Source of the DNA: a virus
Virus genome (UHGV): UHGV-0036582
Length of the DNA stretch: 64,000 nt
Direction: 5' to 3' (one strand)
A model generated the notes under the pieces. It saw only the letters and a program-made list of their open reading frames with translations. It made no database searches and was not told where the DNA came from. Positions within the stretch are counted from its first letter, which is position 1, and the number at the start of each line of letters is the position of its first letter. The position numbers were made by a program, and so were the translations under genes. Shown here piece by piece: positions 1-63,870 of the stretch.

Positions 1-129
1 TGTTTCCCGCAGGCTAAAAACACCAACCTCTTACCTCCAGGCAACCGACAAACCCACCTGTTCCCGTCCGGCTACCGTAACTTTCCACTTTGACGCCTTA
101 TTCGTACAACGATAATTAACACCAACAAG

Positions 130-143
130 AAAACAATTTGTTA
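130..143. promoter_or_regulatory. palindromic operator-like site AAAACAATTTGTTA upstream of first rightward gene
   Basis: Dyad AACAA-T-TTGTT about 20 nt upstream of RBS AAGGAA (152-157) and ATG 164; same 13-bp palindrome family recurs at 9271, 38500, 41432. Confidence 0.4.
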
Positions 144-163
144 TTTACGATAAGGAATTAATC

Positions 164-899: not shown

Positions 900-1025
900 A
901 TAATCACATACGTGATTAAGTGGTGTGATTATGTGAAAAATCACGCGCACATAATACGCGAGCGGATACAGAACAAAACAAAATGCCGATCCGCACCGAC
1001 AAATAAACGCGGATCACATAGCAAG
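900..1025. repeat. cluster of GTGATTA/TAATCAC and TCACATA short inverted/direct repeats
   Basis: TAATCAC-ATAC-GTGATTA palindrome at 901-918, GTGATTATGTGAAAAATCAC at 923-942, TCACATA again near 1013; non-coding. Confidence 0.4.
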
Positions 1026-1180
1026 ACTAAAAGCCAATGATTAACCATACTCTATAGCGCAATATAACGCGTTTTAAGCGCGTTAATGTGTTAAGTAATG
1101 GGTATGTACTGGCAAGGATATAAAAGCGCGTCTATGGCGTTATTTTGGTGCTTATTTTTATGTTGTTGGAGTGAGTTAAA

Positions 1181-11213: not shown

Positions 11214-11239
11214 GTAAGTAATTATCTAAGGTTATTCAA

Positions 11240-12814
11240 ATGGAATTGAACGACAAACAAATTAAGGATCTGGTGGCGCGACGCCACCCGGAATACGAAA
11301 AGAAAAAAGAACATTGGGACTTCCTCGCCAGCACTTACGCTGGCGGGCGTGGTTGGTTTACAGACAATATCTTTCGTTACTTTAAAGAGGGAGATCAGGA
11401 GTTTAAGGAGCGAGTTGAGCGTGCTTATCGCTTCAACCACACTCGTGAGGTGGTAAACCTCATCAACAAATATCTCTTTAAAGAAGACATTCATAGAAAT
11501 ATCGAAGAGGCACCAGAGCAGATCCGCAATTTCTGGAAACGTGCGACTCGCCAGAATGCCTCTATTGACTCATTTATGGCCGCTATTGATTTGCAGTCGT
11601 CTATTTACGGTCGCATATGGGTTGTTGTCGATAGCACGATGAGTGGTGATGTTGAGTCAGTAGCTGACGAGAAAAAGAAAGATGCTCGCGCCTACGCCTA
11701 CTGGATTTCACCTCAGCAAATGCTGGATGTGACATGGGACGACGACGGGAATATGTTGTGGGCGTTAATTGTGGAAGTCGCTCGTGATGACGCAGATCCT
11801 TTTACTTCTACAGGTCAGGAATACCAACGTTATCGTCTGTGGACACAAAACGAGTGGTATCTGTTCCGTGAGGAAGTGAAGAAGGGCGCTGGTGGAGCAG
11901 GTCGCCGTCAGGCAAAAGTTATTTTAGAGGATAGCGGTGAGCATAATCTCGGCGTAGTTCCTGTGTTTCCTGTTGATTGTATTGGAGAAAGTGAATCACC
12001 GTATTTCAGCCCATCGTTGATCGATGATATCGCTTATCTTGATCGTGCGGTTGCAAACTATCTGTCAAACCTTGATGCCATTATTCAGGATCAGACATTT
12101 AGCCAGTTGGCTATACCGGTACAGTCGCTTTTACCTGGTGATGAAAACCACACTAAAGTGCTTGAAATGGGCACAAAGCGAGTCTTCACCTACGATTCTG
12201 AAGGTGGAAACCAGCCGTTTTATCTGTCACCAGACCCGAAACAAGCTCAGATGATCATCACTACGATTAAGACGGTGATTAACGAAATCTACCATTCAGT
12301 TGGTGTAGCTGGTGAGCGAACGAAGCAGGACAACGCACAGGGAATCGATAATTCATCTGGTGCCGCAAAAATGTATGACTTCCAGCGTGTAAATAGCTTG
12401 CTTGTCACAAAAGCAGAGCGTCTGGAAAGGGCTGAACGCCAAATCATGCTACTGGTTGCGAAATGGATGGGGGTAGATCTGGACGAAGACCACTCTTTAA
12501 TTGCGTATCCAGAAAGTTTCGATATTCGTGGCCTTACTGATGAATTTTCTGTTGCCGAGAAACTGTCATTACTTCAGGCACCGGACTCTGTACGTCGTCA
12601 CCAGATGGAAATGCTTATTGAGAAGATTTTCCCGAACATTACTGAGGCGATGAAAAAGGAATTTGATAAAGATCTCTTGAATTTTCCTCCAAAAAATGAT
12701 CTAAATACCCTTGAAAATAAGTCAGTACTTACTTATGATCGTGGTGCAGCCCAAGAAAGCGGGCAAGATCAACCCCGAGGGAATGGGGACTCATCTACTC
12801 AAGAGAACGAGTGA
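11240..12814 (+). CDS. portal protein
   Basis: 524-aa ORF immediately after terL; size and position typical of portal. Confidence 0.7.
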   Translation: MELNDKQIKDLVARRHPEYEKKKEHWDFLASTYAGGRGWFTDNIFRYFKEGDQEFKERVERAYRFNHTREVVNLINKYLFKEDIHRNIEEAPEQIRNFWKRATRQNASIDSFMAAIDLQSSIYGRIWVVVDSTMSGDVESVADEKKKDARAYAYWISPQQMLDVTWDDDGNMLWALIVEVARDDADPFTSTGQEYQRYRLWTQNEWYLFREEVKKGAGGAGRRQAKVILEDSGEHNLGVVPVFPVDCIGESESPYFSPSLIDDIAYLDRAVANYLSNLDAIIQDQTFSQLAIPVQSLLPGDENHTKVLEMGTKRVFTYDSEGGNQPFYLSPDPKQAQMIITTIKTVINEIYHSVGVAGERTKQDNAQGIDNSSGAAKMYDFQRVNSLLVTKAERLERAERQIMLLVAKWMGVDLDEDHSLIAYPESFDIRGLTDEFSVAEKLSLLQAPDSVRRHQMEMLIEKIFPNITEAMKKEFDKDLLNFPPKNDLNTLENKSVLTYDRGAAQESGQDQPRGNGDSSTQENE

Positions 12815-42814: not shown

Positions 42815-44068
42815 GTGGAGAACACCTCCACGCTTGATTCATTTGTGAAACAACTTTTCTTTTGCCAAACCACAAAAGAAAAACACATGAGCCTTTATGT
42901 TATATCAACATTTAGGTTGGTCACAATATTGCCTGTTAAAAGTGGAATTATCGTGAGCGAGCTGAAAGAGCTAATTGCCGAATTAGATTTTGAACAATGG
43001 TTGGATACTGAAGGTATCGTTTATCGACGTGGAGGCGTGAGTGCTCGCGGTCGTGAAGTGAATATCAAGGAATGTCCGGTATGCGGCAGCTCCAACTGGA
43101 AGGTATATTTCAATCTGACCAGTGGCGTCGGCAAATGCTTTGCTGGTGATCATCCCGAAGAGATTCAGTTCAATAAGCTGGTCTTCCTCAAGCACTACAG
43201 CGGCAAATCACGACGACAGTTCGAGGAATATGTGCAGAACGCTCTTCTTTCCCAGGGGTGGGCACCAAAGAAAGAAGAGATAGTGCTTGCAAGCACAGTC
43301 GAGTTAGAGGGACCAGTTGCCCTCCCTCGTCATTACGAACTTCCTATAGATGGCCGTCTTCCAGACTATCTGGTTGAACGAAACATATCGCCTGAAATGG
43401 CAAAGTATTTTGACCTACGATACTGCGTCGAAGGCAAGCACGCTTATGTAGATCCGTATACAGATCAGGTAAAAGGACAGATATTCGATATGCGAATACT
43501 CATACCGGTTTACGATCTGGATGGGGTAATGAAGACATTTCAGGGACGAGACATTACCGGTACAGCAGAACGTCGCTACCTCTTTCCTATGCAGCTTCCA
43601 GCTTCAGGTAAGTTTCTCTACAACGGCCATAATGCAGTCGGCAAACAGACGGTAGTTGTCTGTGAGGGGGCGTTCGATGTTATGGGGGTCAAACGAGCTA
43701 TTTTTGACGAAGAAACATTACGTGATTACGTGGAACCAATAGGAACGTTCGGGATGCATCTATCTGGCAACACCACTCAGGATGCAGAAGATCAGCTGGG
43801 CGCGTTCCTGACGCTCAAGGCGCGTGGATTACGTAATGTGATCATGATGTGGGATAGTGAAAAGCAAGCTATACGCAACACTATGGCCGCAGCTAGGCGA
43901 CTCACAAGTATTGGCCTTAATGTCAAAGTTGCGTGTTTGGGCGAGGAAGGACTCGACCCCGGCGATGCGACACCGGGGCAGATTATCAAAGCCTACTATT
44001 GCGCAAAACCTTATTCACGACAGCTTGAACTCTTAAGCAAGGTGAAAGGCATTGCAGCACTAGTTTGA
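42815..44068 (+). CDS. DNA primase (zinc ribbon + TOPRIM)
   Basis: CPVCGSSNW...GKCFAGDHP zinc ribbon; TOPRIM-like VVVCEGAFDVMGV and MMWDSE; start uncertain. Confidence 0.7.
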   Translation: MENTSTLDSFVKQLFFCQTTKEKHMSLYVISTFRLVTILPVKSGIIVSELKELIAELDFEQWLDTEGIVYRRGGVSARGREVNIKECPVCGSSNWKVYFNLTSGVGKCFAGDHPEEIQFNKLVFLKHYSGKSRRQFEEYVQNALLSQGWAPKKEEIVLASTVELEGPVALPRHYELPIDGRLPDYLVERNISPEMAKYFDLRYCVEGKHAYVDPYTDQVKGQIFDMRILIPVYDLDGVMKTFQGRDITGTAERRYLFPMQLPASGKFLYNGHNAVGKQTVVVCEGAFDVMGVKRAIFDEETLRDYVEPIGTFGMHLSGNTTQDAEDQLGAFLTLKARGLRNVIMMWDSEKQAIRNTMAAARRLTSIGLNVKVACLGEEGLDPGDATPGQIIKAYYCAKPYSRQLELLSKVKGIAALV

Positions 44069-45097
44069 ACCAGTATTAGTCACGTAAACATTGACCGAAA
44101 ATGATTTAACTTCTGTGTTGAAGTTGTCAGTCATTACCGCGAGGTAGGCATTCTTGGTATCTCTGAATTGCTTCAGGATGATTTGAACGTTATCGGTGCA
44201 AACAAACGAGGTAGCCAGATTGCCTCCTTTCTCTGAAAAATCCTTTAGGAAAGTGCAGTCAATTTTGCCATCATTAGCGGTGAAGGTGGCATCATCACCC
44301 TGCCAGGTAAATGTTGCGTTAACGCCTTTATCAATGGATTTAGCAATAAGTCGCTGAGTGGAGGATTTTGCTTTAGATCTTGCTGCTGATGGTTGGTATT
44401 TACCGCTTTCTTTTAGTTCTGCAATGTAATCACAGCCATTTTTATCTTCTTTATCGCAAGCTGCCTGATAAAGCTCAGCTGCTTTTTTATAATCTTTTTT
44501 AACCCCTTCACCATACTCATACATAATGCCAAGATTCGCCAATGCAGATGCACTGCCTAGTTCGATTCCTTTTTTATAATACTCTATTGCCTTTTTGTAG
44601 CTTTTTGGCACGCCTGCGCCAACATAATATAACTGTCCTAAATATGACGCAGATTCAGGGTCGCCAGCCTCTACTGCAAGTTTGTGATATTTCAGGGAAA
44701 GTTTTTGGTCTTTCTTACCCGCAAGTCCTTTATGATAAATAACACCCAGATTGTGATAAGAGTTGCCTCCAGCTGCATCACCAGCTTTCTTAAAGAGTTC
44801 CTCTGCCTTTTTGAAATTTTTATCAACCCCATACCCAAGGGCATACATTATACCTAGAGCATTAAACGCTTCTTTGTTCCCCTTAGAAGTCGCCAGTTCA
44901 AGCCATTTTCTGGCTTCATCGTAGTTTTTTTCGACACCATGAATACCTTTCATATAGTCGATACCTAAAGCACTCTGTGACTCAACGTCGCCTGCTTTTG
45001 CCGCATCGATCAGCTTTTGTATTTCATAGGCATGTGCACTCCCCGAAACAAGTAATAGCGACAACATAAAGAAAGATATTGGTTTGAAATGTTTCAT
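44060..45097 (-). CDS. secreted Sel1-repeat (TPR-like) protein, moron
   Basis: Signal peptide MKHFKPISFFMLSLLLVSGSAHA; at least six Sel1-type ~36-aa repeats; antisense to flanking operon; sampled line about 37 percent GC. Confidence 0.75.
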   Translation of the reverse strand: MKHFKPISFFMLSLLLVSGSAHAYEIQKLIDAAKAGDVESQSALGIDYMKGIHGVEKNYDEARKWLELATSKGNKEAFNALGIMYALGYGVDKNFKKAEELFKKAGDAAGGNSYHNLGVIYHKGLAGKKDQKLSLKYHKLAVEAGDPESASYLGQLYYVGAGVPKSYKKAIEYYKKGIELGSASALANLGIMYEYGEGVKKDYKKAAELYQAACDKEDKNGCDYIAELKESGKYQPSAARSKAKSSTQRLIAKSIDKGVNATFTWQGDDATFTANDGKIDCTFLKDFSEKGGNLATSFVCTDNVQIILKQFRDTKNAYLAVMTDNFNTEVKSFSVNVYVTNTGSN

Positions 45098-50092: not shown

Positions 50093-51355
50093 TTACTTTG
50101 CATAGTCGCCCAATTTTAATATTTCGCGCTTATATTCATTAACCATGCTACTGGATTCAGTATAAATTCGATTTAAAAGATTATCGTTATCTTTATTTTC
50201 ATTTATCTTAATTAGTGCTAATTTATATTCATAGTCATCAAATGCCACAATTAAATGGTGGCCTGGGATTATATCTTCGTCACTCTTAAAGTATATATCT
50301 TCAAGTATGTAATCTAGTTGATTAGATTTTCTTTTCTCGATGTAATCTTCAGCCATAGCTATTACATCATTCCTGTCATTTAACCTGTTTTTTTCGGAAG
50401 GCACATCTTCGTAATGTTGCACGATTGAACAACCAATAAGGCGTGGGATGTAAACGTCAAAATGAGTAACTCTATCATTCGCGGTTTTAAGTAGTTCCTC
50501 AAAGTAGTTTCTTACATGTAAAGGCAACTTCTCAAAGTAATCATTAATTATAGGAGAACAAGGAGTTTTATAATTCATAAGAACCGACGGTACGAGCTTT
50601 GGGTGTCGAAACATCCAGTCCCTTTTAACGTCCGATGGAACATAATAACTTTTAATGATATTATCAAAATAATTTATCATTCGAGATTTGAATATTTTGT
50701 TGAATCTAAGGTTTATGAATGTATCCAGATAAGGCATATTTGAATAAGCATCATCAAAAAATATTTCATCATTGAAAAAATCATATTTATTCAATAAACA
50801 ACACAGTTTTTCCGAATTAATATGTTCACAATAATCGATTTTTAATCCAAAGATAGCAATGATCAACTTCATCTGAGGTGGGATTTTAAAAATTAATTGT
50901 GACACATACGCTCTTTTTTCCTTGAGACATTCCCCATCAATATAAAATGAACCATCCACATACTCAAATATATTAATAATATGCTTCACATACTGTATTA
51001 CCTCATGCTGTCTTACCAATGGATAATATAGTCTATGTAACTCATCGCTGTTTAAATTAATTTTGTGTTTATCGATAATTTGTTTTGCAAGAAGACATAA
51101 CTCATCATGTTGATTTAATAAGGAATCAAACCATTGTTTAAATGCACTCTTTCGCATTTCGAACAATGATTCAGTTGTTAATTGAAGGGCTGAAAAAGCT
51201 GCTTTTGCACTTTTTCTCGCTTCGTAGGCATTCCATGCTGTTGCTATAAAAGCAAATGCTGTAGCCAATGTTCCAACAGTTTGACCATTTAAAACAACCC
51301 AATCCCAAAAAATGACGGTGAGCAGTAGTATAATAATGAAAATTAAAAAAGGCAT
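50093..51355 (-). CDS. AT-rich moron: membrane-anchored protein of unknown function (candidate exclusion/abortive-infection factor)
   Basis: 420 aa; N-terminal hydrophobic segments (FLIFIIILLLTVIFWDWVV, VGTLATAFAFIATAW); hand-counted GC about 20-28 percent in sampled lines versus about 50 percent in structural genes; opposite strand to flanking genes. Confidence 0.6.
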   Translation of the reverse strand: MPFLIFIIILLLTVIFWDWVVLNGQTVGTLATAFAFIATAWNAYEARKSAKAAFSALQLTTESLFEMRKSAFKQWFDSLLNQHDELCLLAKQIIDKHKINLNSDELHRLYYPLVRQHEVIQYVKHIINIFEYVDGSFYIDGECLKEKRAYVSQLIFKIPPQMKLIIAIFGLKIDYCEHINSEKLCCLLNKYDFFNDEIFFDDAYSNMPYLDTFINLRFNKIFKSRMINYFDNIIKSYYVPSDVKRDWMFRHPKLVPSVLMNYKTPCSPIINDYFEKLPLHVRNYFEELLKTANDRVTHFDVYIPRLIGCSIVQHYEDVPSEKNRLNDRNDVIAMAEDYIEKRKSNQLDYILEDIYFKSDEDIIPGHHLIVAFDDYEYKLALIKINENKDNDNLLNRIYTESSSMVNEYKREILKLGDYAK

Positions 51356-51529
51356 GTATGTATTTCACTCTACTAACTATAAAATATTAGGCTAATGTTA
51401 ACCAAACAATGCCTTAATTAATAGATTGATCGAGGCTTTAATAGCTTTATAATGCAGACTGTAAAGATAAGTATGCACATACCTATCTTCTTTGTAAGTA
51501 AAGTTGCATATCAATTCTATGAGGTAACA

Positions 51530-51775
51530 ATGACGATCACTATCTACGGACGAGATAACTGCTCATACTGCAAACGTGCGGTCGAGCTGGCGAAGCAACT
51601 AAAGGGACATGGCTACGGTGATTATGAGTACATCGACATCACCACTGCCGGTATCGACAAGGAAAAACTAAGTGAAATTGTTGGTAAACCGGTAGAGACT
51701 ATCCCCCAAGTGCTGATCGATGGCCAACCGATTGGCGGATACACAGAACTGGCTGCATACGTCAGCACCCTCTGA
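51530..51775 (+). CDS. glutaredoxin (NrdC-like)
   Basis: ITIYGRDNCSYCKRA CxxC active site; C-terminal PQVLIDGQPIGGY; ATG 51530 after GAGGTAA RBS. Confidence 0.75.
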   Translation: MTITIYGRDNCSYCKRAVELAKQLKGHGYGDYEYIDITTAGIDKEKLSEIVGKPVETIPQVLIDGQPIGGYTELAAYVSTL

Positions 51776-51985: not shown

Positions 51986-53089
51986 ATGAAAAATAGCTTT
52001 GACAGAGCACGCGCTGCGGAGAACACCTCAAAAGAGGCGATAGAGTATCTCGAAAGAGCATCTCAAATGCAGGCCGTTATGATCTCCCAGGTCAGCAATG
52101 ACATGAGATTCTCGGACGCATTCATGTTATTCACTCGCTTATCTCTGCTGATAACCAGACGTCGGCCAGAGATCGCTGTTCATTGTATTTTGATACATGT
52201 TTTGCCGCACCTTGCCGATGTAAAAGTAAGTGACATTAATAGGTTCATGGTGAACCAACTGGTCAACCCACTAATACTGGATGGCAAAATTGTTATGGGC
52301 CGCCGCGTTTTCTCTCTGATGAAGCAGTTCCTTAGCTGGTGCGCCTTCCAGGGGATGATAGACGTGTCACCGTTAAACGATATGTCACTTAACAATGTTG
52401 CCGGTGGCGCAAAGCCCACACCTCGCGAGCGGAAGCTGACCGACGCAGAGGTATGGGTGTTCTGGAATATATGGGACTACTTCAATGTGTGCGCTGGTAC
52501 AAAATGGGCGGCCAGGCTATGTCTTGTATCCGCAAGACGACCTGACGAAGTACTGCGGGCTAAAAAAAGTGAGTTCAACCTCCAGCGTGGGGTTTGGAAT
52601 CAAGGCAAGAGAAACAAATCAGCCCGTGAGCATTCTCTGCCTTTAAGCACATTAATGCGCACATGCATTGAAGAGTTATTCGAATATGGTAAAGGCAGCC
52701 AGTGGCTTGTGCCTTCGAATAAAAAAATCGGGAATGATCTTCCGATGTCTAAAGTGGCAATAGCCCAGGCATTACGCCGTATCCTGGAACGACCAGAACT
52801 GATGGAGCTTGAGCCATTTACACCCCGAGATTTGCGTCGTACTGCGCGTAGTTACTTCCCAGCATTAGGCATAAGCCAGGAGGTATCACGCAAAATCATG
52901 AACCACAGTCTTGAGGGGATAGATCGGGTCTACGACCGGCACGATTATATGGACGAGATGCGAGACGCCTTAGAAAGTTTCTCGACGTACATCGCATCAA
53001 TCGTAGAGCAACCGGATTTAGACGAAATTGACCACAAATTCAAGGGAGATCGTCTATCAACAGAGCTTATTCGTGTAAATTTTTCATAG
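51986..53089 (+). CDS. tyrosine recombinase / phage integrase family
   Basis: C-terminal catalytic block PRDLRRTARS ... MNHS ... VYDRHDY (Arg/His/Tyr positions of the tyrosine recombinase fold); 367 aa. Confidence 0.7.
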   Translation: MKNSFDRARAAENTSKEAIEYLERASQMQAVMISQVSNDMRFSDAFMLFTRLSLLITRRRPEIAVHCILIHVLPHLADVKVSDINRFMVNQLVNPLILDGKIVMGRRVFSLMKQFLSWCAFQGMIDVSPLNDMSLNNVAGGAKPTPRERKLTDAEVWVFWNIWDYFNVCAGTKWAARLCLVSARRPDEVLRAKKSEFNLQRGVWNQGKRNKSAREHSLPLSTLMRTCIEELFEYGKGSQWLVPSNKKIGNDLPMSKVAIAQALRRILERPELMELEPFTPRDLRRTARSYFPALGISQEVSRKIMNHSLEGIDRVYDRHDYMDEMRDALESFSTYIASIVEQPDLDEIDHKFKGDRLSTELIRVNFS

Positions 53090-53470
53090 AGACTTTATGG
53101 CCTCAACAACCTTTTGTGATGCGCCTTTCTCTTTACCGAATCGCTCGTTATATGCAGCAAGAACCTGTTTTTCGTCCTCGTTAAGAGGCGCAGTGCCTTC
53201 TTTGTATAAAAATGCTGCGAGTTCAGGTTGGCGTTCTTCCAGCACCATCATCATAAGACGACTTGGCTCAATACCCAGCGCCAGCGCCAGCGGACGAACC
53301 TTATCGATAGGCAAAGGAATTTTGCCACTTTTAATTAAAGAAAGGTTGTTGGCATTTTTATAACCAATAAGTCTAGCTATTTGGGCCTGACTCATAGGTG
53401 AGGATTCAATCAGCCCTGCGATAAAAGCAGCATAGCGACTTTCTATAAATTCAATCTTGTTGTCAGACAT
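53084..53470 (-). CDS. XRE-family HTH transcriptional regulator (repressor-like)
   Basis: SQAQIARLIGYKNANNLSLIKSGK helix-turn-helix; no peptidase domain; convergent with recombinase, divergent from downstream operon. Confidence 0.7.
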   Translation of the reverse strand: MSDNKIEFIESRYAAFIAGLIESSPMSQAQIARLIGYKNANNLSLIKSGKIPLPIDKVRPLALALGIEPSRLMMMVLEERQPELAAFLYKEGTAPLNEDEKQVLAAYNERFGKEKGASQKVVEAIKSL

Positions 53471-54032: not shown

Positions 54033-56132
54033 ATGTCTAAAAAACGTTCCATCAAAGAGGTTCAGGACTTCCGTGACAGTGTAAAACGAGTAGTCGCTCT
54101 CCTTTCAGGTAAAAACATCCCTGTTGCAGAACGAGGGGACGACGCTTATGTACGCTATAACGATGATGGAGAGCCAATTCTCGTAAACATCCCATCAATC
54201 CCGGATAACGCAACACCAGCATTGATGAATGCTGTGCGCGGATTTCTCGATCATGAGGTTGCTCACATTTTGTTTACCGATATTCATGTGTCCAACAAAA
54301 TGAGAGAAAAAGGACGCGTTCCTTCCTGGTCGCTATGGAATGCCTTAGAAGACGTGTTTATCGAGCGAAAAATGGGGCAGGTCTTTAACGGAACAAGACG
54401 TAATCTGATGGCAACTCAGCGCCTTATAATCGAAAAAGTCTTTAAACCAAAGGCTTCAGAGGCTATTACTTATTGTGGCAAAGATCAGCGCGCGCTTTTT
54501 CTAAACTTCTTTCTCTGTCCGGTTGTAAGAGCCTGGGATGGCCAAGCACCGTTCGTAGATTTCATGGATGAATACTGGCCTGTCATTGAGAAACCAATTT
54601 CATTATTAAAAGAACATGGTATCGATGTGGCCGTGCGTAACATGTCTTGCACCGGGGATTGTTTAAAGGTGGCTGCGACCATCGCTAAGATCCTCAAAGA
54701 CACAGAAAGTGAAAGCAAAGGTAAGGAGTCAGCTCCGGGAAAAACTTCCGATCCTTCAGACGCTGATCACGCGGATTCCTCTGGAGAAGGCGATGAAGAT
54801 CACAAGACACCCGAATCGTTAGATAATCACATATCTATTAAAGAAAATTCAAAAGGTAAGCACAAATACGATAATAACAACAGTGATAATTCAGATAACT
54901 CTGAATCATCAGAAACAATATTCGATGATACAGAAAATGATAAAGAGGTATCAGATTCTGGTGCTTCTGATAACGCGGCGTCAGAAGCATTGACCACTGA
55001 CCACGAAAAAAGAAAATCGACAGAAGACGGCTCTTCAGACATTCCAACTCCGTCAAAAATGAGTCTGGAAGAGGCTTTAGAGGAGTTGGATAGCATGGAA
55101 GATGAAGTCGGAGGCATGACAGAAGATGCGCTATCCGAAACGATTAAAAGCGAGTTAACAGAAAGCTCGAAAAGCGAATACAGGCCATACAATCGCTCAT
55201 ACGACTTCATCGGCTCGATTGATCAGGCAGAAGCCCATATCAAACGGCTTATTAAAACATTCTCCGATATTGATTTAGGTGGATATCCAATCAGCCGTTA
55301 TCGCATCGTTCCTGAAGGCAACCAACTCTTCGACAAATATATTGAAAAGCACCTTTCGTCAGGTGTTTCGTCGACGCTGGCAAAAGACCTGGAACGTGCA
55401 ATAGCAAGCAGAAACAGAGTTCAGTTTATACCTGGCCAGCGTCGGGGGCGCATTCATGGTTCAAGTATCTACAGATTAACAATGAATGATGATCGCGTGT
55501 TTCGTAAAAAAGAAGAATCTAAAGCCGTTAACGCCTGTGTTCAACAAGTGATTGATTTATCAGGTTCAATGAGTGGTATAACGATACAATTGGCTCTTGC
55601 AAGTGCATATACCATCGCCGATGCCCTTGATCGAATAAATGTTCCCAACATTATCACCGGCTTCACTACATTTGGTAGTCATATGGCGGCAGGAGAACTT
55701 AAGGCTGTCAAGTATGAGTTCTCTCGCTTTGAATCTTTAATGCTACCTATCATCAAAAATTGGAATGAAAAGGTAAATTCTCGCGAAGTTCGCTCACGTA
55801 TGGGGTGCGTAGGCTACACATTCCCACTTCTTAATAACGTGGATGGTGAAAGCATAGCCAGCCTTGCATCGTTATTTTCCGGTCGCATGGAGGACAGGAA
55901 GATCATGCTTGTTCTGAGTGATGGCGCGCCGTGGGCTGTTGGGAGAGGTTTTGACGCTCATTTGCGTTCGGTTGCGAAGCAAATTGAAACGCAGACTGAT
56001 ATTGATTTGATGGCAATTGGCATCATGACTGACGCACCGGAGAGATTTTACTCAAATCATGCCCTGGTAACGAGCGTTGATAGTCTTGGTTCATCTGTAG
56101 TTACTGAACTATCTCGTATCATTTTAAAGTGA
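54033..56132 (+). CDS. CobT-like von Willebrand factor A (VWA) domain protein
   Basis: C-terminal MIDAS motif VIDLSGSMSG; long acidic Ser/Asp/Glu-rich insert at about 54700-55100. Confidence 0.7.
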   Translation: MSKKRSIKEVQDFRDSVKRVVALLSGKNIPVAERGDDAYVRYNDDGEPILVNIPSIPDNATPALMNAVRGFLDHEVAHILFTDIHVSNKMREKGRVPSWSLWNALEDVFIERKMGQVFNGTRRNLMATQRLIIEKVFKPKASEAITYCGKDQRALFLNFFLCPVVRAWDGQAPFVDFMDEYWPVIEKPISLLKEHGIDVAVRNMSCTGDCLKVAATIAKILKDTESESKGKESAPGKTSDPSDADHADSSGEGDEDHKTPESLDNHISIKENSKGKHKYDNNNSDNSDNSESSETIFDDTENDKEVSDSGASDNAASEALTTDHEKRKSTEDGSSDIPTPSKMSLEEALEELDSMEDEVGGMTEDALSETIKSELTESSKSEYRPYNRSYDFIGSIDQAEAHIKRLIKTFSDIDLGGYPISRYRIVPEGNQLFDKYIEKHLSSGVSSTLAKDLERAIASRNRVQFIPGQRRGRIHGSSIYRLTMNDDRVFRKKEESKAVNACVQQVIDLSGSMSGITIQLALASAYTIADALDRINVPNIITGFTTFGSHMAAGELKAVKYEFSRFESLMLPIIKNWNEKVNSREVRSRMGCVGYTFPLLNNVDGESIASLASLFSGRMEDRKIMLVLSDGAPWAVGRGFDAHLRSVAKQIETQTDIDLMAIGIMTDAPERFYSNHALVTSVDSLGSSVVTELSRIILK

Positions 56133-56227
56133 ACAAAACAGCCTTAATGATAAGTAACCACTTACGATAGATAATGATATATTTATATAAGAAGTTGAAC
56201 GCTCATTAGAGAACAAAGGAAAAACGC

Positions 56228-57463
56228 ATGACGACTACTGCACTGCAAAATGAAAAAAATCCTTCTGATTACCTTGTTTGCAAGTGGTGCGGCAAATCAT
56301 TTCACTATTTTAAGTCCCATGTAGCCAATGGTAATTGCGAGGGCATTCCTGAGTCAGTAAAAGATGCCGATCCTGACACCGTACTGAAAATGTACACAAC
56401 GCAGTTTCCAGATGAACCAACGCTATCGAAAAAGGCACTTGATGCAATTCAAGCTAAACGTGCCGAGCAAAAAAGCGAAATGGCCAAATCTTCTGGCTTG
56501 ACCAGTAGCCCTGGCTACACAGGCACAGTTGAGTACAAGACAGATCTGGTCGCAGCTCACGAACTGCTAAACGTAACGGTGGAAGAACTCGGAACAAAAC
56601 GTGGGACGCCGCTCATGGTTAGCGTCAACGTCAATACGCCGTATCCAGAGTTCGTTCCCGAAGTGAAGAAAGGCTACGTATATGGCGACTTCGAACTGAT
56701 CAAAGATATTTTCATGATGCTTGAACTTGGCATACCTGGCTATTTGTGGGGTCATGCAGGAACAGGCAAATCGTCATTGCCTACACAGCTATGTGCTTTG
56801 CTCAATCGTCCGTTGATCCGTGCCCAACATACAGCATCAATGGAAGAGGCACATGTTACGGGGCAAATTCTGGCGCGTGATGGCTCTACGTATTTCGAAC
56901 CTGGCTTGCTTGCGCTCGCAATGAAGCATGGCTGGGTTTACCTCGCAGATGAATACGACTTTGCGTTTCCACAAATTCTTGGCGTGTATCAGCCAGTGCT
57001 GGAAGGTGAAGCGTTGGTCATCAAAGAGGCAACTCCAGAATGGCGTCGCATTACTCCGCATGAACGGTTTGCTTTCATTGGCACTGGCAACACGAACGGA
57101 TCTGGTGATGAAACCGGCTTGTACCAGGGTACAAACATCCAGAACGCCGCGAACTTTTCGCGTTTTGGCATCGTTTCGAATGTGAAATACATGAGCAAAG
57201 ACGCAGAGATCAACATGTTGACAAATGCAGGCATCGTGGATGAATACGCTGAAAAGATGGTTAAGTTTGCCGGTATCGTTCGCGATGGATACGAAGAACA
57301 CCTTATTAGTCAGCCAATTGGCCCTCGTGAACTTTTGTTGTCGGCCAAGATTGGAATGATGCGAGGCGACTTTGTGACAGGTATTGAGCGTTCTTTCATT
57401 AACAAACTCCCTTCAGCTTCTGCACAAGCGGCTCGTGAAGTTGTTCAAAAAATATTTGGTTAA
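56228..57463 (+). CDS. CobS/MoxR-like AAA+ ATPase
   Basis: Walker A GHAGTGKSS, Walker B VYLADEYD; N-terminal Cys cluster CKWCGK...GNCEG. Confidence 0.75.
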   Translation: MTTTALQNEKNPSDYLVCKWCGKSFHYFKSHVANGNCEGIPESVKDADPDTVLKMYTTQFPDEPTLSKKALDAIQAKRAEQKSEMAKSSGLTSSPGYTGTVEYKTDLVAAHELLNVTVEELGTKRGTPLMVSVNVNTPYPEFVPEVKKGYVYGDFELIKDIFMMLELGIPGYLWGHAGTGKSSLPTQLCALLNRPLIRAQHTASMEEAHVTGQILARDGSTYFEPGLLALAMKHGWVYLADEYDFAFPQILGVYQPVLEGEALVIKEATPEWRRITPHERFAFIGTGNTNGSGDETGLYQGTNIQNAANFSRFGIVSNVKYMSKDAEINMLTNAGIVDEYAEKMVKFAGIVRDGYEEHLISQPIGPRELLLSAKIGMMRGDFVTGIERSFINKLPSASAQAAREVVQKIFG

Positions 57464-57465
57464 TC

Positions 57466-57669
57466 GTGCGTAAAGGATGTTTCGGCTCTCTTATCGCTGC
57501 TTCTGAAACTGGTAAGGCTTGTCTGGTGTGTCCAGACAAGCCCGATTGTCACCAATCAGCAAAAGAAGTTGCGATTTCGATGCATGGGAAGTTCGTAGGC
57601 TTCCCCAATGACAAAATCAAAAAAACCAGAAAGGTAAAAACACATGAAGGCACTGATGGTTCGAACTGA
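57466..57669 (+). CDS. small Cys-rich (zinc-finger-like) protein
   Basis: 67 aa with C..C...C..C..C spacing; overlaps start of DnaE gene. Confidence 0.3.
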   Translation: MRKGCFGSLIAASETGKACLVCPDKPDCHQSAKEVAISMHGKFVGFPNDKIKKTRKVKTHEGTDGSN

Positions 57670-60600
57670 CTTCTCACTTGGGGAGTCGGCTCTAAAAGCA
57701 GAAAACGCGGTGAAGATTGCCAGAGAAGCTGGCTACACCGCTGTAATTTCAGCAGATAGCATGAATATTGCGAGCGTTATTCCACTACAACGTGCCGCTG
57801 GTGACGACATGGCGGTTATTTGTGGTGTGAAACTAAACATTGTTGATGATCCCACATACGAGCACCGGGCTAAACTTGCTAAAGAATCTATGAGATGTAT
57901 GGAATCATTAGAGCGGGGACGTAACTACTCGTTTACCGCTCTAATTAAAAATGAGCAAGGATATCGCGACATCTGCGAACTAATGACGGTGGCCAACACA
58001 CGAGAACAGTTCTACTTTGTACCGCGTCTCTCGCTCGAACAGTTGGTTTCTACATATGCCAAAGGCAACATCATCCTGCTCACTTCCGACATCGGTAGCG
58101 TGTTCCAACGCAACGATTTTGCAAAAATCATAAGCTCACTGATTACAGCGGGCGGGAAAGACAACTTCTATAGCGTGGTTTATCCGCACCCTACCCCATT
58201 CTACGACCAGATTAACGTCCGAGCGATGAAAGTAGCCAGCGCACTGAAAATAGAGCCAGTAGCGTTCTATCCCGCTTATTACGAATCGATCGACGATGCA
58301 GACATTAAAGACATTGCGCACATGGTTACGAACAACATAAAAATCGACCAGCCGCATCGTCTGCGTATCCCCCACCAGCGAGATAACGCCATCAATGGTC
58401 GTCGCCATCTCCTTGAGGCGCTTAAAGCCTTCTCCGTTCGCATGGATGTGCCGGTAACAGCTGCAATGGCCTCAACAACGCAGGACTCCATTATCGATGC
58501 CTGCACATGGCGCTGGCATGAATTGCCACCAGCACTGCCCAAGATGGCAGACGACGAACCTGCAACGCTGATGAAACTGGCTGTTGCAGGGCTGCGTAAA
58601 CGTCTTACCACAAAAGAGTTTGGATACACACCACCTGCTTCTGAGAACAGGGTTTATGTTGAGCGGCTAAAGTACGAAATGGACACGCTGACTCGCCTGG
58701 GATTCTGTGGTTACTTCCTGATGGTACGCGATCTGATGAATCACAGCCGTGAAACTGGCATTCCTGTCGGGCCTGGTCGTGGTTCCTCTGCCGGTTCTCT
58801 GGTGGCGTGGTGCATAGGCATAACCAACGTCGACCCAATCCGTCACGGTCTTCTGTTTGAGCGTTTCATCAACCCTGAGCGTCTCGACTTGCCGGATGCG
58901 GACTTGGACTTCAGCCAGGCACGTCGCCATGAGGTGATCGAGTATCTGAATGAACGCTACGGCGAAGATTACGTTGCAGGCATTCCGAACTTCACCTACC
59001 TGGGCGCAGCCTCTGCACTACGTGACACCGCTCGTATTTATGGTGTGGAGTCCGCAGATATGGCGGTATCAAAAGAACTGAAGAACGTCGAGGATGATAG
59101 CCTTCCATTGGAAGAGCTGCGCGAACAACTGGCAAGTCTCGACAAATACGCAACAAAATATCCTGATGCATTCAATGCAGCCTGCAAGTTACAAAGCCTT
59201 ATGCGTGGCTTTGGTAGACATGCGGCAGGGATGATCGTAGCAGGTGTTCCTCTGACAGAACGTACACCGGTTGAACGCCGTGGTGACGCGCGTTGTATCG
59301 CATTTGACAAGCGTTACTGCGAGGCTATGGGCCTAATTAAGCTGGACGTACTTGGTCTGGCAACTCTCGATTTGCTCGATAGTGCAAAACGCTACATAAA
59401 AGAGAACACAGGTGAAGATATCAATCTTGATGCCATTTCTCTTGAAGATCGCAAGGTGCTGGATGGTTTTGCTGCTGGGTACACTCAAGGTGTTTTCCAG
59501 CTTGAATCAGGCCCAATGCGCAAGCTGCTTAAAGATTTAGGTGGTGGAATTGAGCCAATGAGCTTTAAAACGGTTGTTGCTACGACTGCGCTCTTCCGGC
59601 CGGGTCCAATTCAGTCAGGCATGTTGGATGACTATGTTTCTGTAGCCAAAGGCTTTATGACGCCGGAATCATTACACCCCGTTCTTGATGAACTTACCGC
59701 AGAAACAAATGGCGTGATTCTCTATCAGGAACAGACGATGAACGCGACTCGATTGCTTGCTGGCTTCACAATGGCTGAAGCTGACGGCGTTCGTAAAGCG
59801 ATCGGCAAAAAAGACATGGAAAAAATGAAGAGCATGGGCGAGAAGTTCATCGTTCAGGCTCAAGCTGGCTGGATAGACGTTGAGCTGGAAGATGGCACTA
59901 CACAGCGCATTCACCGTGCGGAACATTTTAAATGCGAAGACGGAACTCTGAAAACTGTCGAAGAGGCACTTGAGTACGGCGCAAAACTACCTATAAACGC
60001 AGTACGCGTTACAGCGTCACATCCAGGGCTATCAGAGATGAAAGCGAAGGAGATCTGGACCGCATTCGAAAAGAATGGTGCCTACCAGTTCAACAAATCA
60101 CACTCTGTTGCTTACTCCTTAATCAGTTATCAATCTATGTGGTTGAAAACTCATTATCCCGCGGAGTTCTTCGCTGCTGCTCTCACTATTCTTGGCGAAG
60201 ATAAACACCAGGGGCTGGTTAAAGATGCGCTGACCTATGGTATTCGCGTATTGCCACCAGACGTTAACGTGTCATCTAACCGAATCGAGATCCGCACGCT
60301 TGAAGATGGCAGCCAGGTGCTGTATGCGCCCTTCTCTGCTGTGAAAGGGTGTTCTGAGAATGGCTGCCAAGCCATCATGAGAGCGCGAGAAAAAGTTGGC
60401 GGCAAATTCGAGTCACTGGCGCAATTCGAAGAAGCTGTCGAGAAACGTGCCTGTAATAGTCGAGTGCGCGAATCACTGCAAAAAGTAGGTGCGTTTGCAT
60501 CCATCGAGCCAGGTAGTCTGCCAGCAACTGATCCAGAGCGTCTCCGCGACCAGGCTGAATTGATGGGAAACCTTGTCATAGACGCAGTTAAAGCCTCACG

Positions 60601-61162
60601 TCCGTTTGAGATGAACCCCAAACGTTCGGCTGAGATTAACGTGCTCATGACACGGATGGCGGCTGAAATGGGATTAGGTGATGAACTAATCCGCCCTAGC
60701 ATTGGCATTAAGCCGAAAATCATGATCATTCTGGACAATGCGAACGGCAATGATGCTCGAACCGGTTACTTTATGGAGAACGGATACGACGACTTTAAGG
60801 CCAAGCTATTGACGGCTGGAGATTTACGCATGGGCGATCTCTATGTCACAGGCGTTTGCAAGAAGGTTAAAGACAAAGAAAAAGACTACACCAAAGACGA
60901 GATCGGCCAGTTCACCGACTTTATACGTGAAGAGATCAATCTGGTGCGTCCGACCTATGTGCTGACGTGTGGCAGCCGGGCAACGGCATTGTTTAACAAC
61001 AAAAACAAGCCATCCGATTTGGTCGGCAGGAAGGAGTACCTTCCAGACCTTGACGTTACTGTCTTTTACGGGTTTAACCCCAACATTCTTTACTTCAGAC
61101 CTGAAGAGGGAGAACGACTAGAAGCGATATTAGCCGACGTAGCAGAAACCATTAAGACGTGA
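57644..61162 (+). CDS. dnaE: DnaE-type DNA polymerase III alpha subunit (PHP + polymerase core)
   Basis: 1172 aa; N-terminal PHP-like region, conserved blocks GFCGYFLMVRDL, GPGRGSSAGSLVAWCIGIT, LDFSQARR, GVFQLESG. Confidence 0.9.
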   Translation: MKALMVRTDFSLGESALKAENAVKIAREAGYTAVISADSMNIASVIPLQRAAGDDMAVICGVKLNIVDDPTYEHRAKLAKESMRCMESLERGRNYSFTALIKNEQGYRDICELMTVANTREQFYFVPRLSLEQLVSTYAKGNIILLTSDIGSVFQRNDFAKIISSLITAGGKDNFYSVVYPHPTPFYDQINVRAMKVASALKIEPVAFYPAYYESIDDADIKDIAHMVTNNIKIDQPHRLRIPHQRDNAINGRRHLLEALKAFSVRMDVPVTAAMASTTQDSIIDACTWRWHELPPALPKMADDEPATLMKLAVAGLRKRLTTKEFGYTPPASENRVYVERLKYEMDTLTRLGFCGYFLMVRDLMNHSRETGIPVGPGRGSSAGSLVAWCIGITNVDPIRHGLLFERFINPERLDLPDADLDFSQARRHEVIEYLNERYGEDYVAGIPNFTYLGAASALRDTARIYGVESADMAVSKELKNVEDDSLPLEELREQLASLDKYATKYPDAFNAACKLQSLMRGFGRHAAGMIVAGVPLTERTPVERRGDARCIAFDKRYCEAMGLIKLDVLGLATLDLLDSAKRYIKENTGEDINLDAISLEDRKVLDGFAAGYTQGVFQLESGPMRKLLKDLGGGIEPMSFKTVVATTALFRPGPIQSGMLDDYVSVAKGFMTPESLHPVLDELTAETNGVILYQEQTMNATRLLAGFTMAEADGVRKAIGKKDMEKMKSMGEKFIVQAQAGWIDVELEDGTTQRIHRAEHFKCEDGTLKTVEEALEYGAKLPINAVRVTASHPGLSEMKAKEIWTAFEKNGAYQFNKSHSVAYSLISYQSMWLKTHYPAEFFAAALTILGEDKHQGLVKDALTYGIRVLPPDVNVSSNRIEIRTLEDGSQVLYAPFSAVKGCSENGCQAIMRAREKVGGKFESLAQFEEAVEKRACNSRVRESLQKVGAFASIEPGSLPATDPERLRDQAELMGNLVIDAVKASRPFEMNPKRSAEINVLMTRMAAEMGLGDELIRPSIGIKPKIMIILDNANGNDARTGYFMENGYDDFKAKLLTAGDLRMGDLYVTGVCKKVKDKEKDYTKDEIGQFTDFIREEINLVRPTYVLTCGSRATALFNNKNKPSDLVGRKEYLPDLDVTVFYGFNPNILYFRPEEGERLEAILADVAETIKT

Positions 61163-61287: not shown

Positions 61288-61719
61288 ATGATCACCGATA
61301 TTTACGAGAAAATAATGTCTGATCTCGAGTTTGACCGAGACAATCTGGAGGAAGTCTGGCGTAGACAACCCCGCCTTTTAATGGAGTATGGCTCAAAACT
61401 CGCTCATGCAGAAAGAAGTGTCGCAGAGGCAAAACTTAACCTTGAAGCTGTTGAAGCAAAGCTATACGACACAGAGCGTAAGAACTTGAGTATGAACGGC
61501 ATTAAGTTCAACGAGTCTGTACTGGACGCTAAGGTTAAAACAAACCCACAGTATCTGTCTAAACGGCAGAAGTTGGATGAAGCACGGCACATCGCAGACA
61601 TATACAAACATGCTGTCGCCGCCTTTTCGCATCGCCGAGACATGATCGTTCAGGCGTCAAAGATGGCCATCGTTGAATTAGAGCGATTAGGCTCTGAACG
61701 CTTTATTACTCCCCGTTGA
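61288..61719 (+). CDS. hypothetical protein, possibly UvsY-like recombination mediator
   Basis: 143 aa, helical; loose resemblance to the T4 UvsY N-terminal pattern; position upstream of SSB. Confidence 0.3.
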   Translation: MITDIYEKIMSDLEFDRDNLEEVWRRQPRLLMEYGSKLAHAERSVAEAKLNLEAVEAKLYDTERKNLSMNGIKFNESVLDAKVKTNPQYLSKRQKLDEARHIADIYKHAVAAFSHRRDMIVQASKMAIVELERLGSERFITPR

Positions 61720-61836: not shown

Positions 61837-62865
61837 ATGTCTAAGACATTACTTGATTTGCTTAACAAAACTCGTGAAGACATTGCCGCCAAACGTGGTA
61901 ACAACGTTGATCTGACTCGCTTAAAAGACGGCGTCAACTATATCCGCATCTTCCCGAATAAAGACGACCCAAACGGTAAGTTCTTCCAGACTTTCGGTAT
62001 GCACTACGTTAAGTATCAGAACGAGGAAGGTAAAGAAGCAACCAACGCTTATATTTGTGAGCAACATACTCACGGTCGCGCTTGTCAGCTATGCGAAATG
62101 GTGATGGAAGGTCGCGCTCGTCACAAGGGTAACAAAGCAATGGAAGAACGCATCGGTCAAATGCGTGCCACTCCTCGCTACCTGGTCAACGGCATTCTTT
62201 CTGCTCGTGAGGATTTCGCAGATGCTGAGAAATGCCAGTTAATCGAGCTGCCGTCTACTGTATTCGATGATATCTGCAAAGCAATCACCGAAGACATCGC
62301 TGATGATATCGGCAATCCACTGAGCAAAGAGGAAGGCTACGCATTCCTGATTAAACGTACTGGCTCTGGTCGCGATACCAAATATGACGTCTCGCCTAAG
62401 CGTAAAGTCTACAAAGGCGATATCGAAGATAAATTCTGGAATACCCAGCATGATCTGATCGCATACGCAAATCAGGCTGATGAAACTCGTCTTCTGTCGA
62501 CAGTTCGCACTATGGGTCGTCTGATTGGCATCGCTGCACCAACTGCCGCAGCATCTGCACCAGCAATTTCCTCAACCGCGAAAACATCGGCTGCGGCACT
62601 ACCTGGATTTGGCTCTGTCACTGGTCATACAGAAGGAGCGACGGCTGTAGCAACCGCGCACACACCGGCTTCTGAACCAACCAGTCTGGTTGATGAAGAA
62701 ATCCTCCGTGCCGTTGAAACTGAATTTAAACCAGAGGCAAGTTCCGCTGCCGTTGCTGTATCAGTCAAAGAGTCTGAAGCAGTCGCAGCGACATCTGTAG
62801 CAACCGCATCTGCGACGGAAGATGAAGGTCTGGATGACCTACTGAGAGAGCTGGACTCTCTGTAA
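61837..62865 (+). CDS. gp32-like single-stranded DNA-binding protein
   Basis: IRIFPNKDD...HYVKY...YICEQHTHGRACQLCE parallels the T4 gp32 zinc site (His, Cys x3); acidic C-terminal tail DEGLDDLLRELDSL. Confidence 0.6.
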   Translation: MSKTLLDLLNKTREDIAAKRGNNVDLTRLKDGVNYIRIFPNKDDPNGKFFQTFGMHYVKYQNEEGKEATNAYICEQHTHGRACQLCEMVMEGRARHKGNKAMEERIGQMRATPRYLVNGILSAREDFADAEKCQLIELPSTVFDDICKAITEDIADDIGNPLSKEEGYAFLIKRTGSGRDTKYDVSPKRKVYKGDIEDKFWNTQHDLIAYANQADETRLLSTVRTMGRLIGIAAPTAAASAPAISSTAKTSAAALPGFGSVTGHTEGATAVATAHTPASEPTSLVDEEILRAVETEFKPEASSAAVAVSVKESEAVAATSVATASATEDEGLDDLLRELDSL

Positions 62866-62880
62866 TCCCATTACGTGACC

Positions 62881-62912
62881 AGTAAGGCGTCTACGGACGC
62901 CTTACTTTTTGG
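62881..62912 (+). terminator. intrinsic terminator after SSB gene
   Basis: AGTAAGGCGTC-TACG-GACGCCTTACT followed by TTTTGG. Confidence 0.7.
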
Positions 62913-62925
62913 AAGGAATGTACCG

Positions 62926-63870
62926 GTGAATTATCTCTTCGTAGATGGCAATAGCCTGGGTTATTACCACCAACAATCTGACAAATTGCACAACGGCGAA
63001 ATGGAAGTACAGGCTGCTTTCGGCTTTGTTAAGAACGTCCGTCGTTATGCCTCCATCCTCCATGCCCGACCTATGATTCTTTGGGATGGATTTAGTGACA
63101 AGCGTCGCGACTTTTACCCGGACTACAAAGCAAATCGCGACGACGATCCTGATATGAAAAAGATGAAGGAAGGCTTTGCTATCCAGAAGCCATACATCCT
63201 CAAAATGATGACCGCGCTTGGTGTTAACCAAATCATTGCAAAAGATGCAGAAGCGGATGATCTGGCCGGGCTGCTGGTATCCCGCATGGCACCGCAGCCA
63301 ACCGTTGAACACATCTATCTGTTAACAGGCGATAGCGACTGGCTTCAGTTAGTTCGCGAAAACGTAAGCTGGGTAAGCCTGCGTGAAGACGCCAAAAACA
63401 AGCAGGTTAATTTTGAGCAATTTGCGGAGCTGACAGGATTCGCCACGCCTCGCGCATTTTTGGAAGCAAAAGCATTACAAGGCGATAACTCGGACAACAT
63501 TAGCGGTGTTGGTGGCATTGGTGCTGGCGGTGCGAAAGAGCTGCTGCATGAATGGGGAAGTGTCGCAACGATGGTACGCGGCATCAACGACGGCTCAATC
63601 GTGGTTAATAAAGGGCGTCATAAGACCGCCTTCAACAAACTAGCGAAGAATGCCTTCAACGAGAAAACAGGCTGTCGAATGCTCGAAGCGTTCAAGAGAA
63701 ACATCACCCTAATGAACCTGATTGAGACGAAGTTTCCGCCTACCGAAATCGAAACAATCAAAGGCAATCGTGACGTGAAAGCATTCGAGCAACTGTGCTA
63801 CGAGCTGAATTTCCGTTCGTTCCTTGAAGACCTTGAAGTGTTTGTTCTTCCATTCGAAAGGTATTGCTAA
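62926..63870 (+). CDS. 5'-3' exonuclease / flap endonuclease (FEN, PIN + H3TH)
   Basis: LFVDGNSLGYY, LTGDSDWLQL, GVGGIGAGGAKELL motifs; GTG 62926 after GGAAGG RBS; track ORF start 62875 lies inside the upstream terminator. Confidence 0.85.
   Translation: MNYLFVDGNSLGYYHQQSDKLHNGEMEVQAAFGFVKNVRRYASILHARPMILWDGFSDKRRDFYPDYKANRDDDPDMKKMKEGFAIQKPYILKMMTALGVNQIIAKDAEADDLAGLLVSRMAPQPTVEHIYLLTGDSDWLQLVRENVSWVSLREDAKNKQVNFEQFAELTGFATPRAFLEAKALQGDNSDNISGVGGIGAGGAKELLHEWGSVATMVRGINDGSIVVNKGRHKTAFNKLAKNAFNEKTGCRMLEAFKRNITLMNLIETKFPPTEIETIKGNRDVKAFEQLCYELNFRSFLEDLEVFVLPFERYC

Follow-up and report, generated by a model that had tools for sequence, protein, structure and literature searches.

The cooperation of MoxR-class AAA+ ATPases with partner proteins that carry a von Willebrand factor A (VWA) domain follows a motor-adaptor-effector logic that has been established for CobSTN, NorQD and CbbQO (preprint 10.64898/2026.07.21.739949). 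A known and widespread gene pair of this kind is also present in phages, where cobS and cobT belong to the viral "metabolic" genes reported most often, are core genes in marine T4-like cyanophages and have been used to argue for a phage-driven boost of B12 synthesis. An initial annotation of the locus described here noted that the role of such pairs is not established, and the literature that we found indeed holds bioinformatic proposals only. We have analyzed a 64,000-nucleotide stretch of the virus genome UHGV-0036582 (the window), in which a CobT-like VWA protein, a CobS-like AAA+ ATPase and a Cys-rich micro-open reading frame (micro-ORF) precede a DnaE-type DNA polymerase at positions 54,033 to 61,162. 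Judged from sequence, the pair shares ancestry with cobaltochelatase CobS and CobT but does not appear to work as a chelatase here. The reading we favor, to which we give a probability of roughly 40%, is that the two proteins are a phage-specific motor and adaptor of the MoxR type that work independently of CobN, probably carry a zincin site, act early and remodel a DNA-associated protein at lytic replication. Newly described are a Ros/MucR-type zinc finger on CobS, a retained HExxH motif in CobT and the origin of the micro-ORF.

Along its entire extent, the 7.1-kb region matches Escherichia phages CMS-2020a and PhiR41_1 at 97-98% identity; the value is 94% for phage Cyrano and ~80% for Salmonella phage SSU5, and on the basis of these identities the window is part of an SSU5-like E. 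coli phage-plasmid of ~108 kb. Elements from E. coli, Salmonella, Klebsiella and Cronobacter show strong conservation of the pair. The CobT-CobS-DnaE arrangement itself is already public, since in the records of these phages the genes bear the labels "porphyrin biosynthesis protein", "CobS-like protein" and "DNA polymerase III alpha subunit", and NCBI names the two proteins of the pair "CobT-related protein" and "AAA family ATPase". The Cyrano record (OV696614.1) labels them "dimethylbenzimidazole phosphoribosyltransferase" and "cobalamin synthetase", which is a name-collision annotation error since those names denote the unrelated CobT and CobS of Salmonella nomenclature. Gene order was compared among viral contigs that carry relatives of the CobS-like protein, 80 close ones and 80 distant ones (in the distant set, CobS is 40-46% and DnaE 35-40% identical, and most contigs are 100-115 kb), and all synteny counts cover informative loci, meaning those long enough to show the neighbor in question. 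Gene content beyond the window was read from PhiR41_1, a 97% relative, with Pfam scans of its out-of-window proteins of at least 150 aa and of the non-structural proteins of the window, and with PHROGs scans of the ten proteins that remained unannotated.

Both proteins have clear homology to their cellular namesakes and an intact set of active-site residues. The CobT-like protein matches the Pfam models CobT (PF06213) at aa 9-296 with an E value of 1e-24 and CobT_C, the VWA domain (PF11775), at aa 489-698 with an E value of 1.2e-82, both above the gathering cutoffs (88 and 277 bits), and together with an acidic linker and an intact MIDAS (metal ion-dependent adhesion site) this is the architecture of the CobT superfamily. 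The MIDAS residues D508, S510, S512, N602 and D630 align with D422, S424, S426, N518 and D546 of solved CobT, and D508, S510, S512 and D630 are invariant among 67 CobT-like family members. The long acidic insert that had also been recognized earlier spans aa 223-390 (28% Asp plus Glu, 18.5% Ser, net charge -30) and is a family trait, because cellular CobT likewise carries an acidic disordered linker. For the CobS-like protein, which had been correctly described as a MoxR/CobS-like ATPase, the nearest solved relative is CobS (E 1e-25), followed by Midasin, CbbQ and NorQ. Its Walker A K181, Walker B D241-E242, sensor-1 N288, arginine finger R312 and sensor-2 R367 are intact and invariant in the family, and they align with K77, D141-E142, N186, R210 and R271 of solved CobS. 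An AAA_5-type ATPase gene thus adjoins a VWA gene with an intact MIDAS, as is expected of a MoxR-class pair. However, the NCBIfam equivalog models assign neither protein to the chelatase: CobT scores 72.8 bits versus a cutoff of 759.05 (TIGR01651) and CobS 86.6 bits versus a cutoff of 558.55 (TIGR01650). Since these scores lie 7- to 10-fold below the cutoffs, the phage pair is not orthologous to the chelatase subunits.

The N-terminal Cys cluster of the CobS-like protein, also noted previously, consists of C18, C21, H31 and C37, which is a variant C-x2-C-x9-H-x5-C arrangement with an insert. Profile comparison identifies this N-terminus as a Ros/MucR-type zinc finger. A profile of 24 CobS N-termini retrieves Ros87 (2jsp) with an E value of 3.5e-6, far ahead of all other solved chains, and Pfam ROS_MUCR (PF05443) matches 6 of 16 CobS homologues (best E 1.5e-4), while the window protein on its own gives no Pfam match for its finger. 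The family consensus reads KI.C.ICGA.VH.IQ.HL...HP..T...Y...YP.APLLS. A whole-library search with the CobS N-terminus returned 13 matches, mostly fragments of the same family, and disclosed no new architectures. We found no mention of a fusion between a Ros-type finger and an AAA+ module in the searchable literature.

The N-domain of the CobT-like protein bears a second metal-site signature. H74, E75 and H78 of an HExxH motif are present in 60 of the 67 family members, E106 and E111 are invariant, and the conserved pattern is GFLDHEV[AG]H...N..ED..[IV]E. An HExxH motif with a downstream Glu ligand in a putatively M48-like N-domain corresponds, by sequence, to a zincin. This agrees with the description by Iyer et al. 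(2021) of a phage "vWA fused to an N-terminal metallopeptidase domain" (PMC7824862) and with the M48C-like fold reported for cellular CobT_N. A search of PDB sequences with the CobT N-domain profile did not retrieve the CobT N-domain itself; it gave only a weak match to the anti-CRISPR AcrIIA26 (E 0.008, motif LN.[VI]ED.FIE, aa 100-116, nt ~54330-54380) that was set aside as probably due to chance. An AlphaFold model of the CobT-like protein, made from an alignment of close homologues only, had a mean pLDDT (predicted local distance difference test) of 38.9 and was too poor to use.

Gene order around the pair is constant. CobS is immediately preceded by a CobT-like gene in 147 of 147 loci (76/76 close and 71/71 distant), DnaE lies downstream of CobS in 66 of 68 close and 70 of 70 distant loci, and a flap exonuclease gene (FEN) follows DnaE in 54/57 close and 56/57 distant loci. 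All informative distant loci, at 35-46% identity, show the order CobT-CobS-(sigma)-(Cys4 protein)-DnaE-UvsY-like-gp32-FEN. Two cultured phages, ZY21 of Pseudomonas (Nickievirus) and RHph_N1_10 of Rhizobium, extend this to helicase-primase-ligase-CobT-CobS-(sigma)-(Cys protein)-DnaE-SSB-FEN-RecA, where SSB is a single-stranded DNA-binding protein. Thus, the association of the pair with replication genes is real and ancient and not accidental. Nor is the pair tied to DnaE. The T4-like cyanophage S-RIM2 encodes a 701-aa CobT-like protein (HEVGH, DWSGS) and CobS immediately upstream of the gp45 clamp, gp44 and gp62, and in the podovirus Vibrio phage JSF27 a CobT-CobS pair (HECYH, DSSGS) precedes a helicase and Pol A by 2.5 kb. 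In the SSU5-like phages, S-RIM2 and JSF27 the pair therefore lies in the replication region, and the polymerases of these phages belong to families C, B and A, respectively. Additionally, cobS has been taken as an "early gene" marker in cyanophage P-SSM2 (PMC6628666).

By homology to CobST, the CobS-like subunits would form an ATP-hydrolyzing ring on which the CobT-like protein docks, placing its pre-VWA "shaft" into the pore and capturing a target through the MIDAS site. The zincin site of the N-domain may also cleave that target, and the Ros/MucR finger on the motor would position the machine on or near DNA. Expressed together with replication and recombination genes, the machine could then remodel, release or process a DNA-associated protein as lytic replication starts, with either a component of the phage replisome or recombination apparatus or a host DNA-bound protein as a conceivable target. 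Several observations weigh against this reading. The zinc-finger domain is roughly neutral rather than basic (56 representatives have a median net charge of -1) and thus need not bind DNA; in RHph_N1_10 the second Cys of the finger motif, and apparently also a later ligand, is substituted; and the CobS proteins of cyanophages and of JSF27 have N-termini of other kinds, which lack the Ros-type motif and gave no match in Pfam. One CobT-like lineage (7/67) has QEVAK in place of HExxH and the ZY21 protein lacks the motif, so proteolysis cannot be essential everywhere. A scan for promoters and terminators from 51.3 to 64 kb found such sites to be no more frequent than in shuffled sequence, and phage gene order reflects timing as much as function. 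Our literature searches found no experiment on any phage CobS or CobT. Expression timing in this phage, like DNA binding and proteolysis, enters the favored reading as a prediction.

Among the alternatives, the best survivor, although an improbable one, is that a MoxR-vWA and metallopeptidase system folds or processes structural proteins as a virion-assembly chaperone or protease. This was put forward for T4-like jumbo phages by Iyer et al. (2021) with the Acidianus two-tailed virus as precedent (PMC7824862), and the conserved HExxH and the general protein-remodeling capacity of MoxR-VWA systems would suit it. However, the pair is located in the replication and not the morphogenesis region of three phage types, P-SSM2 cobS is treated as early, and it is not obvious what a zinc finger of the DNA-binding type would do when capsids or tails are put together. 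Slightly less probable still is a metal-insertion chaperone that, by analogy with NorQD, CoxDE and CobST, would serve a phage or host metalloenzyme such as ribonucleotide reductase (RNR), polymerase or an iron-sulfur protein. Several MoxR-VWA pairs do insert metals, the C-x13-C-x2-C-x5-C pattern of the micro-ORF is typical of metal or cluster sites, and DnaE relatives carry a CxxC with a domain resembling family 4 uracil-DNA glycosylase (UDG4), but no single metalloenzyme adjoins the pair in all three phage types, and both the zinc finger and the HExxH would be left unexplained.

We regard as very improbable the view behind the "porphyrin/cobalamin biosynthesis" labels, in which the pair are auxiliary metabolic genes whose products join host CobN and raise cobalamin synthesis. 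The CobS/CobT homology is genuine and the domain set complete, hijacking of host CobN has been proposed on bioinformatic grounds for tailed viruses (PMC8651126), and some relatives have hosts (Pseudomonas, Rhizobium) that take the aerobic route. However, the aerobic chelatase needs CobN (PMC8651126; preprint 10.64898/2026.07.21.739949), and scanning the phage genome (window plus PhiR41_1) with Pfam brought up no CobN-like family. E. coli does not synthesize B12, Salmonella uses the unrelated class II chelatase CbiK (PMC7689651), and the phage RNR is of class Ia and B12-independent. A chelatase role in this host is very unlikely because of these facts, the low equivalog scores and the conservation of the pair in spite of them; the additional zinc finger, the retained HExxH and the constant placement within replication modules also argue against it.

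The remaining alternative originates from the initial annotation, which saw no clamp, clamp loader or separate proofreading subunit and raised the possibility that the pair takes part in replisome assembly or remodeling as a stand-in for a canonical clamp loader. At the sensitivity of Pfam and PHROGs, neither the window nor the rest of the PhiR41_1 genome contains a clamp or loader family, so this part of the observation stands. The missing proofreading subunit, however, was an artefact of the window edge, since PhiR41_1 has a gene for a DnaQ-like RNase_T exonuclease (11107-11664) that lies outside the window. The same scans show a DnaB-like helicase, DnaG-like primase, ATP-dependent ligase, superfamily 2 helicase, SbcCD, RecA with an intein, RuvC-like resolvase and Rep3 initiator. 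The CobS-like protein gave no Pfam match to DNA_pol3_delta, delta2, gamma3 or RFC at E values up to 1. The loader substitute could appeal to the missing clamp and loader genes, to the adjoining dnaE and to the absence of a tau-binding end on the phage DnaE, but it is unsupported and has next to no probability, because the CobS-like protein is nearest to the CobS/Midasin/CbbQ/NorQ VWA-adaptor ring motors and not to the RFC/gamma-type clade, because S-RIM2 encodes the pair beside gp45 and gp44/gp62 so that it coexists with a loader rather than replacing one, and because JSF27 has the pair with Pol A; moreover, this phage encodes no detectable clamp to load, and the host supplies a clamp and loader, the clamp being a possible partner of the DnaE D-Q-x-E-L-M motif described below.

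The DnaE-type polymerase has the expected PHP, core, fingers and HhH regions, and all four reading frames of the block lie where they had been placed. It passes the TIGR00594 superfamily cutoff (633 versus 434 bits) and scores below the equivalog cutoff (679 versus 1002 bits). In an alignment with E. coli DnaE and 51 relatives its PHP domain is degenerate, having lost the HxH ligands. The OB and tau-binding domains are missing, with a UDG4-like domain in their place. A D-[QR]-x-E-L-[ML]-P-G motif after the HhH region is kept across 52 relatives and reads DQAELMGN in the window protein (aa 969-976, nt 60548-60571). As it occupies the place of QADMF, the internal clamp-binding motif of E. coli alpha, the motif is a candidate binding site for the host beta clamp, which suggests that the phage would use the host clamp. 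In the UDG4-like domain the GE[AG]PG catalytic motif is replaced, and the CxxC found just upstream of this domain in distant relatives is lost in the window protein. The arrangement of DnaE with a UDG4-like domain recalls UDG-fold processivity factors.

The micro-ORF begins 2 nt past the cobS stop codon and overlaps dnaE by 26 nt. Of 79 close relatives, 76 have it intact, the ratio of nonsynonymous to synonymous polymorphism (pN/pS) is 0.18-0.34, and this purifying selection establishes that the micro-ORF already listed in the initial annotation is a real gene. In distant relatives the gap between cobS and dnaE is 0.6-3.9 kb and encodes a protein of 170-250 aa in 72 of 72 loci, and every one of these proteins has an N-terminal C-x13-C-x2-C-x5-C, which is precisely the part to which the micro-ORF aligns. 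The C-terminal winged-helix part of this Cys4 family is matched (E 7e-6) by a 269-aa PhiR41_1 protein beside dnaQ (L001 11825-12634). From these alignments, the micro-ORF is the retained Cys4 module, putatively metal-binding, of a split or truncated Cys4 plus winged-helix regulator-like protein; the position of the 269-aa gene suggests that the gene was split and that its other part now adjoins the DnaQ-like polymerase subunit. A sigma-70-like gene (Sigma70_r2 above the gathering cutoff) is also present in the gap of 55 of 72 distant loci, while in the SSU5-like lineage the sigma gene is lost and the Cys4 module alone is kept. The stop and start codons of the sigma-70-like and Cys4 winged-helix genes overlap in some relatives (L087:11148-11834 and 11836-12543; L167:10209-11371), an arrangement that resembles a sigma/anti-sigma pair. 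A BFVD fold search with the Cys4 winged-helix protein returned unannotated family members only. WhiB-like (Wbl) proteins have a first Cys spacing longer than 13 residues, and a WhiB-like identity of the micro-ORF was dropped over its first spacing of 13.

The coordinates of these genes and of their neighbors are collected in Table 1. The position of a helix-turn-helix (HTH) gene upstream suggests that the CobT-DnaE block may be repressor-controlled. A repeat scan of the 53.4-54.1 kb intergenic region gave no convincing repeat, and PADLOC placed the pair, the micro-ORF and their neighbors in no defense system.

Table 1. Features of the CobT-DnaE block and adjacent genes, with nucleotide positions in the window
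Feature	Position (nt)	Residues (aa)	Strand	Remarks
HTH (cI-like) repressor candidate	53084..53470		-	Weak Pfam HTH_19/HTH_37; divergent from CobT-DnaE block
CobT-like adaptor	54033..56132	699	+	Pfam CobT and CobT_C; PDB CobT 9uka, E 9e-17
HExxH of CobT-like N-domain	54252-54266	74-78	+	
Shaft-like segment of CobT-like protein		~460-500		Homologous to CobT shaft
CobS-like MoxR-class AAA+ ATPase	56228..57463	411	+	Pfam AAA_5; PDB CobS 9ujv, E 1e-25
Zinc finger of CobS-like protein	56267-56437	14-70		Followed by variable linker
AAA+ module of CobS-like protein		142-411		
Cys4 micro-ORF	57466..57669	67	+	GTG start; C5, C19, C22, C28; PHROG 6337
DnaE-type (family C) polymerase	57644..61162		+	PHP, palm/thumb/fingers, HhH; Pfam, NCBIfam
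UDG4-like C-terminal domain of DnaE	60701-61159	~1020-1172		TIGR00758, E 2.6e-7, below cutoff
UvsY-like recombination mediator candidate	61288..61719		+	PHROG 2058; weak PHROG 231 UvsY-like; syntenic in most relatives
gp32-like single-stranded DNA-binding protein	61837..62865		+	Pfam gp32, E 1.7e-66
5'-3' flap exonuclease (FEN)	62875..63870		+	Pfam 5_3_exonuc_N/5_3_exonuc

Other features of the window and of PhiR41_1 were observed in passing. Upstream of the block, an island of 34% GC content that is probably acquired cargo encodes at 50093-51355 (-) a protein of 420 aa whose N-terminus is hydrophobic and for which Pfam and PADLOC gave no match; it is followed at 51452-51775 (+) by a glutaredoxin/NrdH-like reading frame (CSYC) and then by an integrase gene. 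A Sel1-repeat protein with a signal-peptide-like N-terminus is encoded at 44060-45097 (-), on the opposite strand between the primase and the next genes of the replication region. Outside the window, PhiR41_1 carries the RecA gene, interrupted by an intein with a LAGLIDADG domain, and a divergent block of Mrp/NUBPL and methionyl-tRNA synthetase genes of host-derived appearance (L165 299-2638 and L001 26801-30092); in E. coli, mrp and metG adjoin each other.

It is possible, though on balance doubtful, that the favored reading extends to phage "cobS/cobT" in general, which would then not be B12 genes but would encode an early, DNA-associated AAA+/VWA/zincin machine preparing template or replisome for phage replication, and which in the SSU5/Nickievirus-like clade would be recruited through the Ros/MucR finger, with genes for a Cys4 protein and a sigma factor alongside. 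If replication-linked remodeling is indeed its function, many metagenomic assignments of auxiliary metabolic genes would need revision and a new accessory activity of phage replication would be defined. Selection maintains the pair in an E. coli phage-plasmid whose host has no B12 pathway, and such an element offers a clean and genetically tractable system for learning what the pair does.

Comparison with described systems places the pair as follows. The CobS-CobT motor of CobSTN (9ujv, 9uka; preprint 10.64898/2026.07.21.739949) has a homologous AAA+ module with the same motif residues, and its adaptor has the same succession of N-domain, acidic disordered linker, pre-VWA segment and VWA domain with MIDAS. 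However, identity is ~30% and confined to the cores, the phage motor has an additional 140-aa N-terminus with the Ros/MucR finger, the phage adaptor N-domain keeps its HExxH, and the phage pair occurs with no CobN found in the phage and in a host without B12 synthesis. The cobS/cobT ("peptidase") pairs of T4-like cyanophages and jumbo phages (PMC7824862; PMC8651126) are the same two-gene unit, and those of S-RIM2 and JSF27 likewise combine an HExxH and VWA/MIDAS adaptor with a location in replication regions. In contrast to the pair described here, the cyanophage and JSF27 CobS proteins align over the AAA+ part alone (~30%), their N-termini are not Ros-type, and they accompany Pol B or Pol A, with the cyanophage also having its own clamp and loader. 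CbbQ-CbbO (Rubisco activase), NorQ-NorD, RavA-ViaA and Rea1/Midasin similarly join an AAA_5-type ring to a MIDAS adaptor acting on a protein target, but their targets and accessory domains differ and none has a Ros-type finger or lies in a replication operon. The clamp loaders (E. coli gamma complex, T4 gp44/62, RFC) are AAA+ ATPases encoded near polymerase genes, yet they have no family match to the CobS-like protein and are pentameric open spirals acting on a sliding clamp. Finally, the Ros/MucR domain (2jsp) shares with the CobS family consensus the C-x2-C-x9-H-x4-H spacing and the ensuing "...T..EY..." segment, while the phage finger is fused to an AAA+ ATPase, has variant ligands and is not basic, with DNA binding as a putative function.

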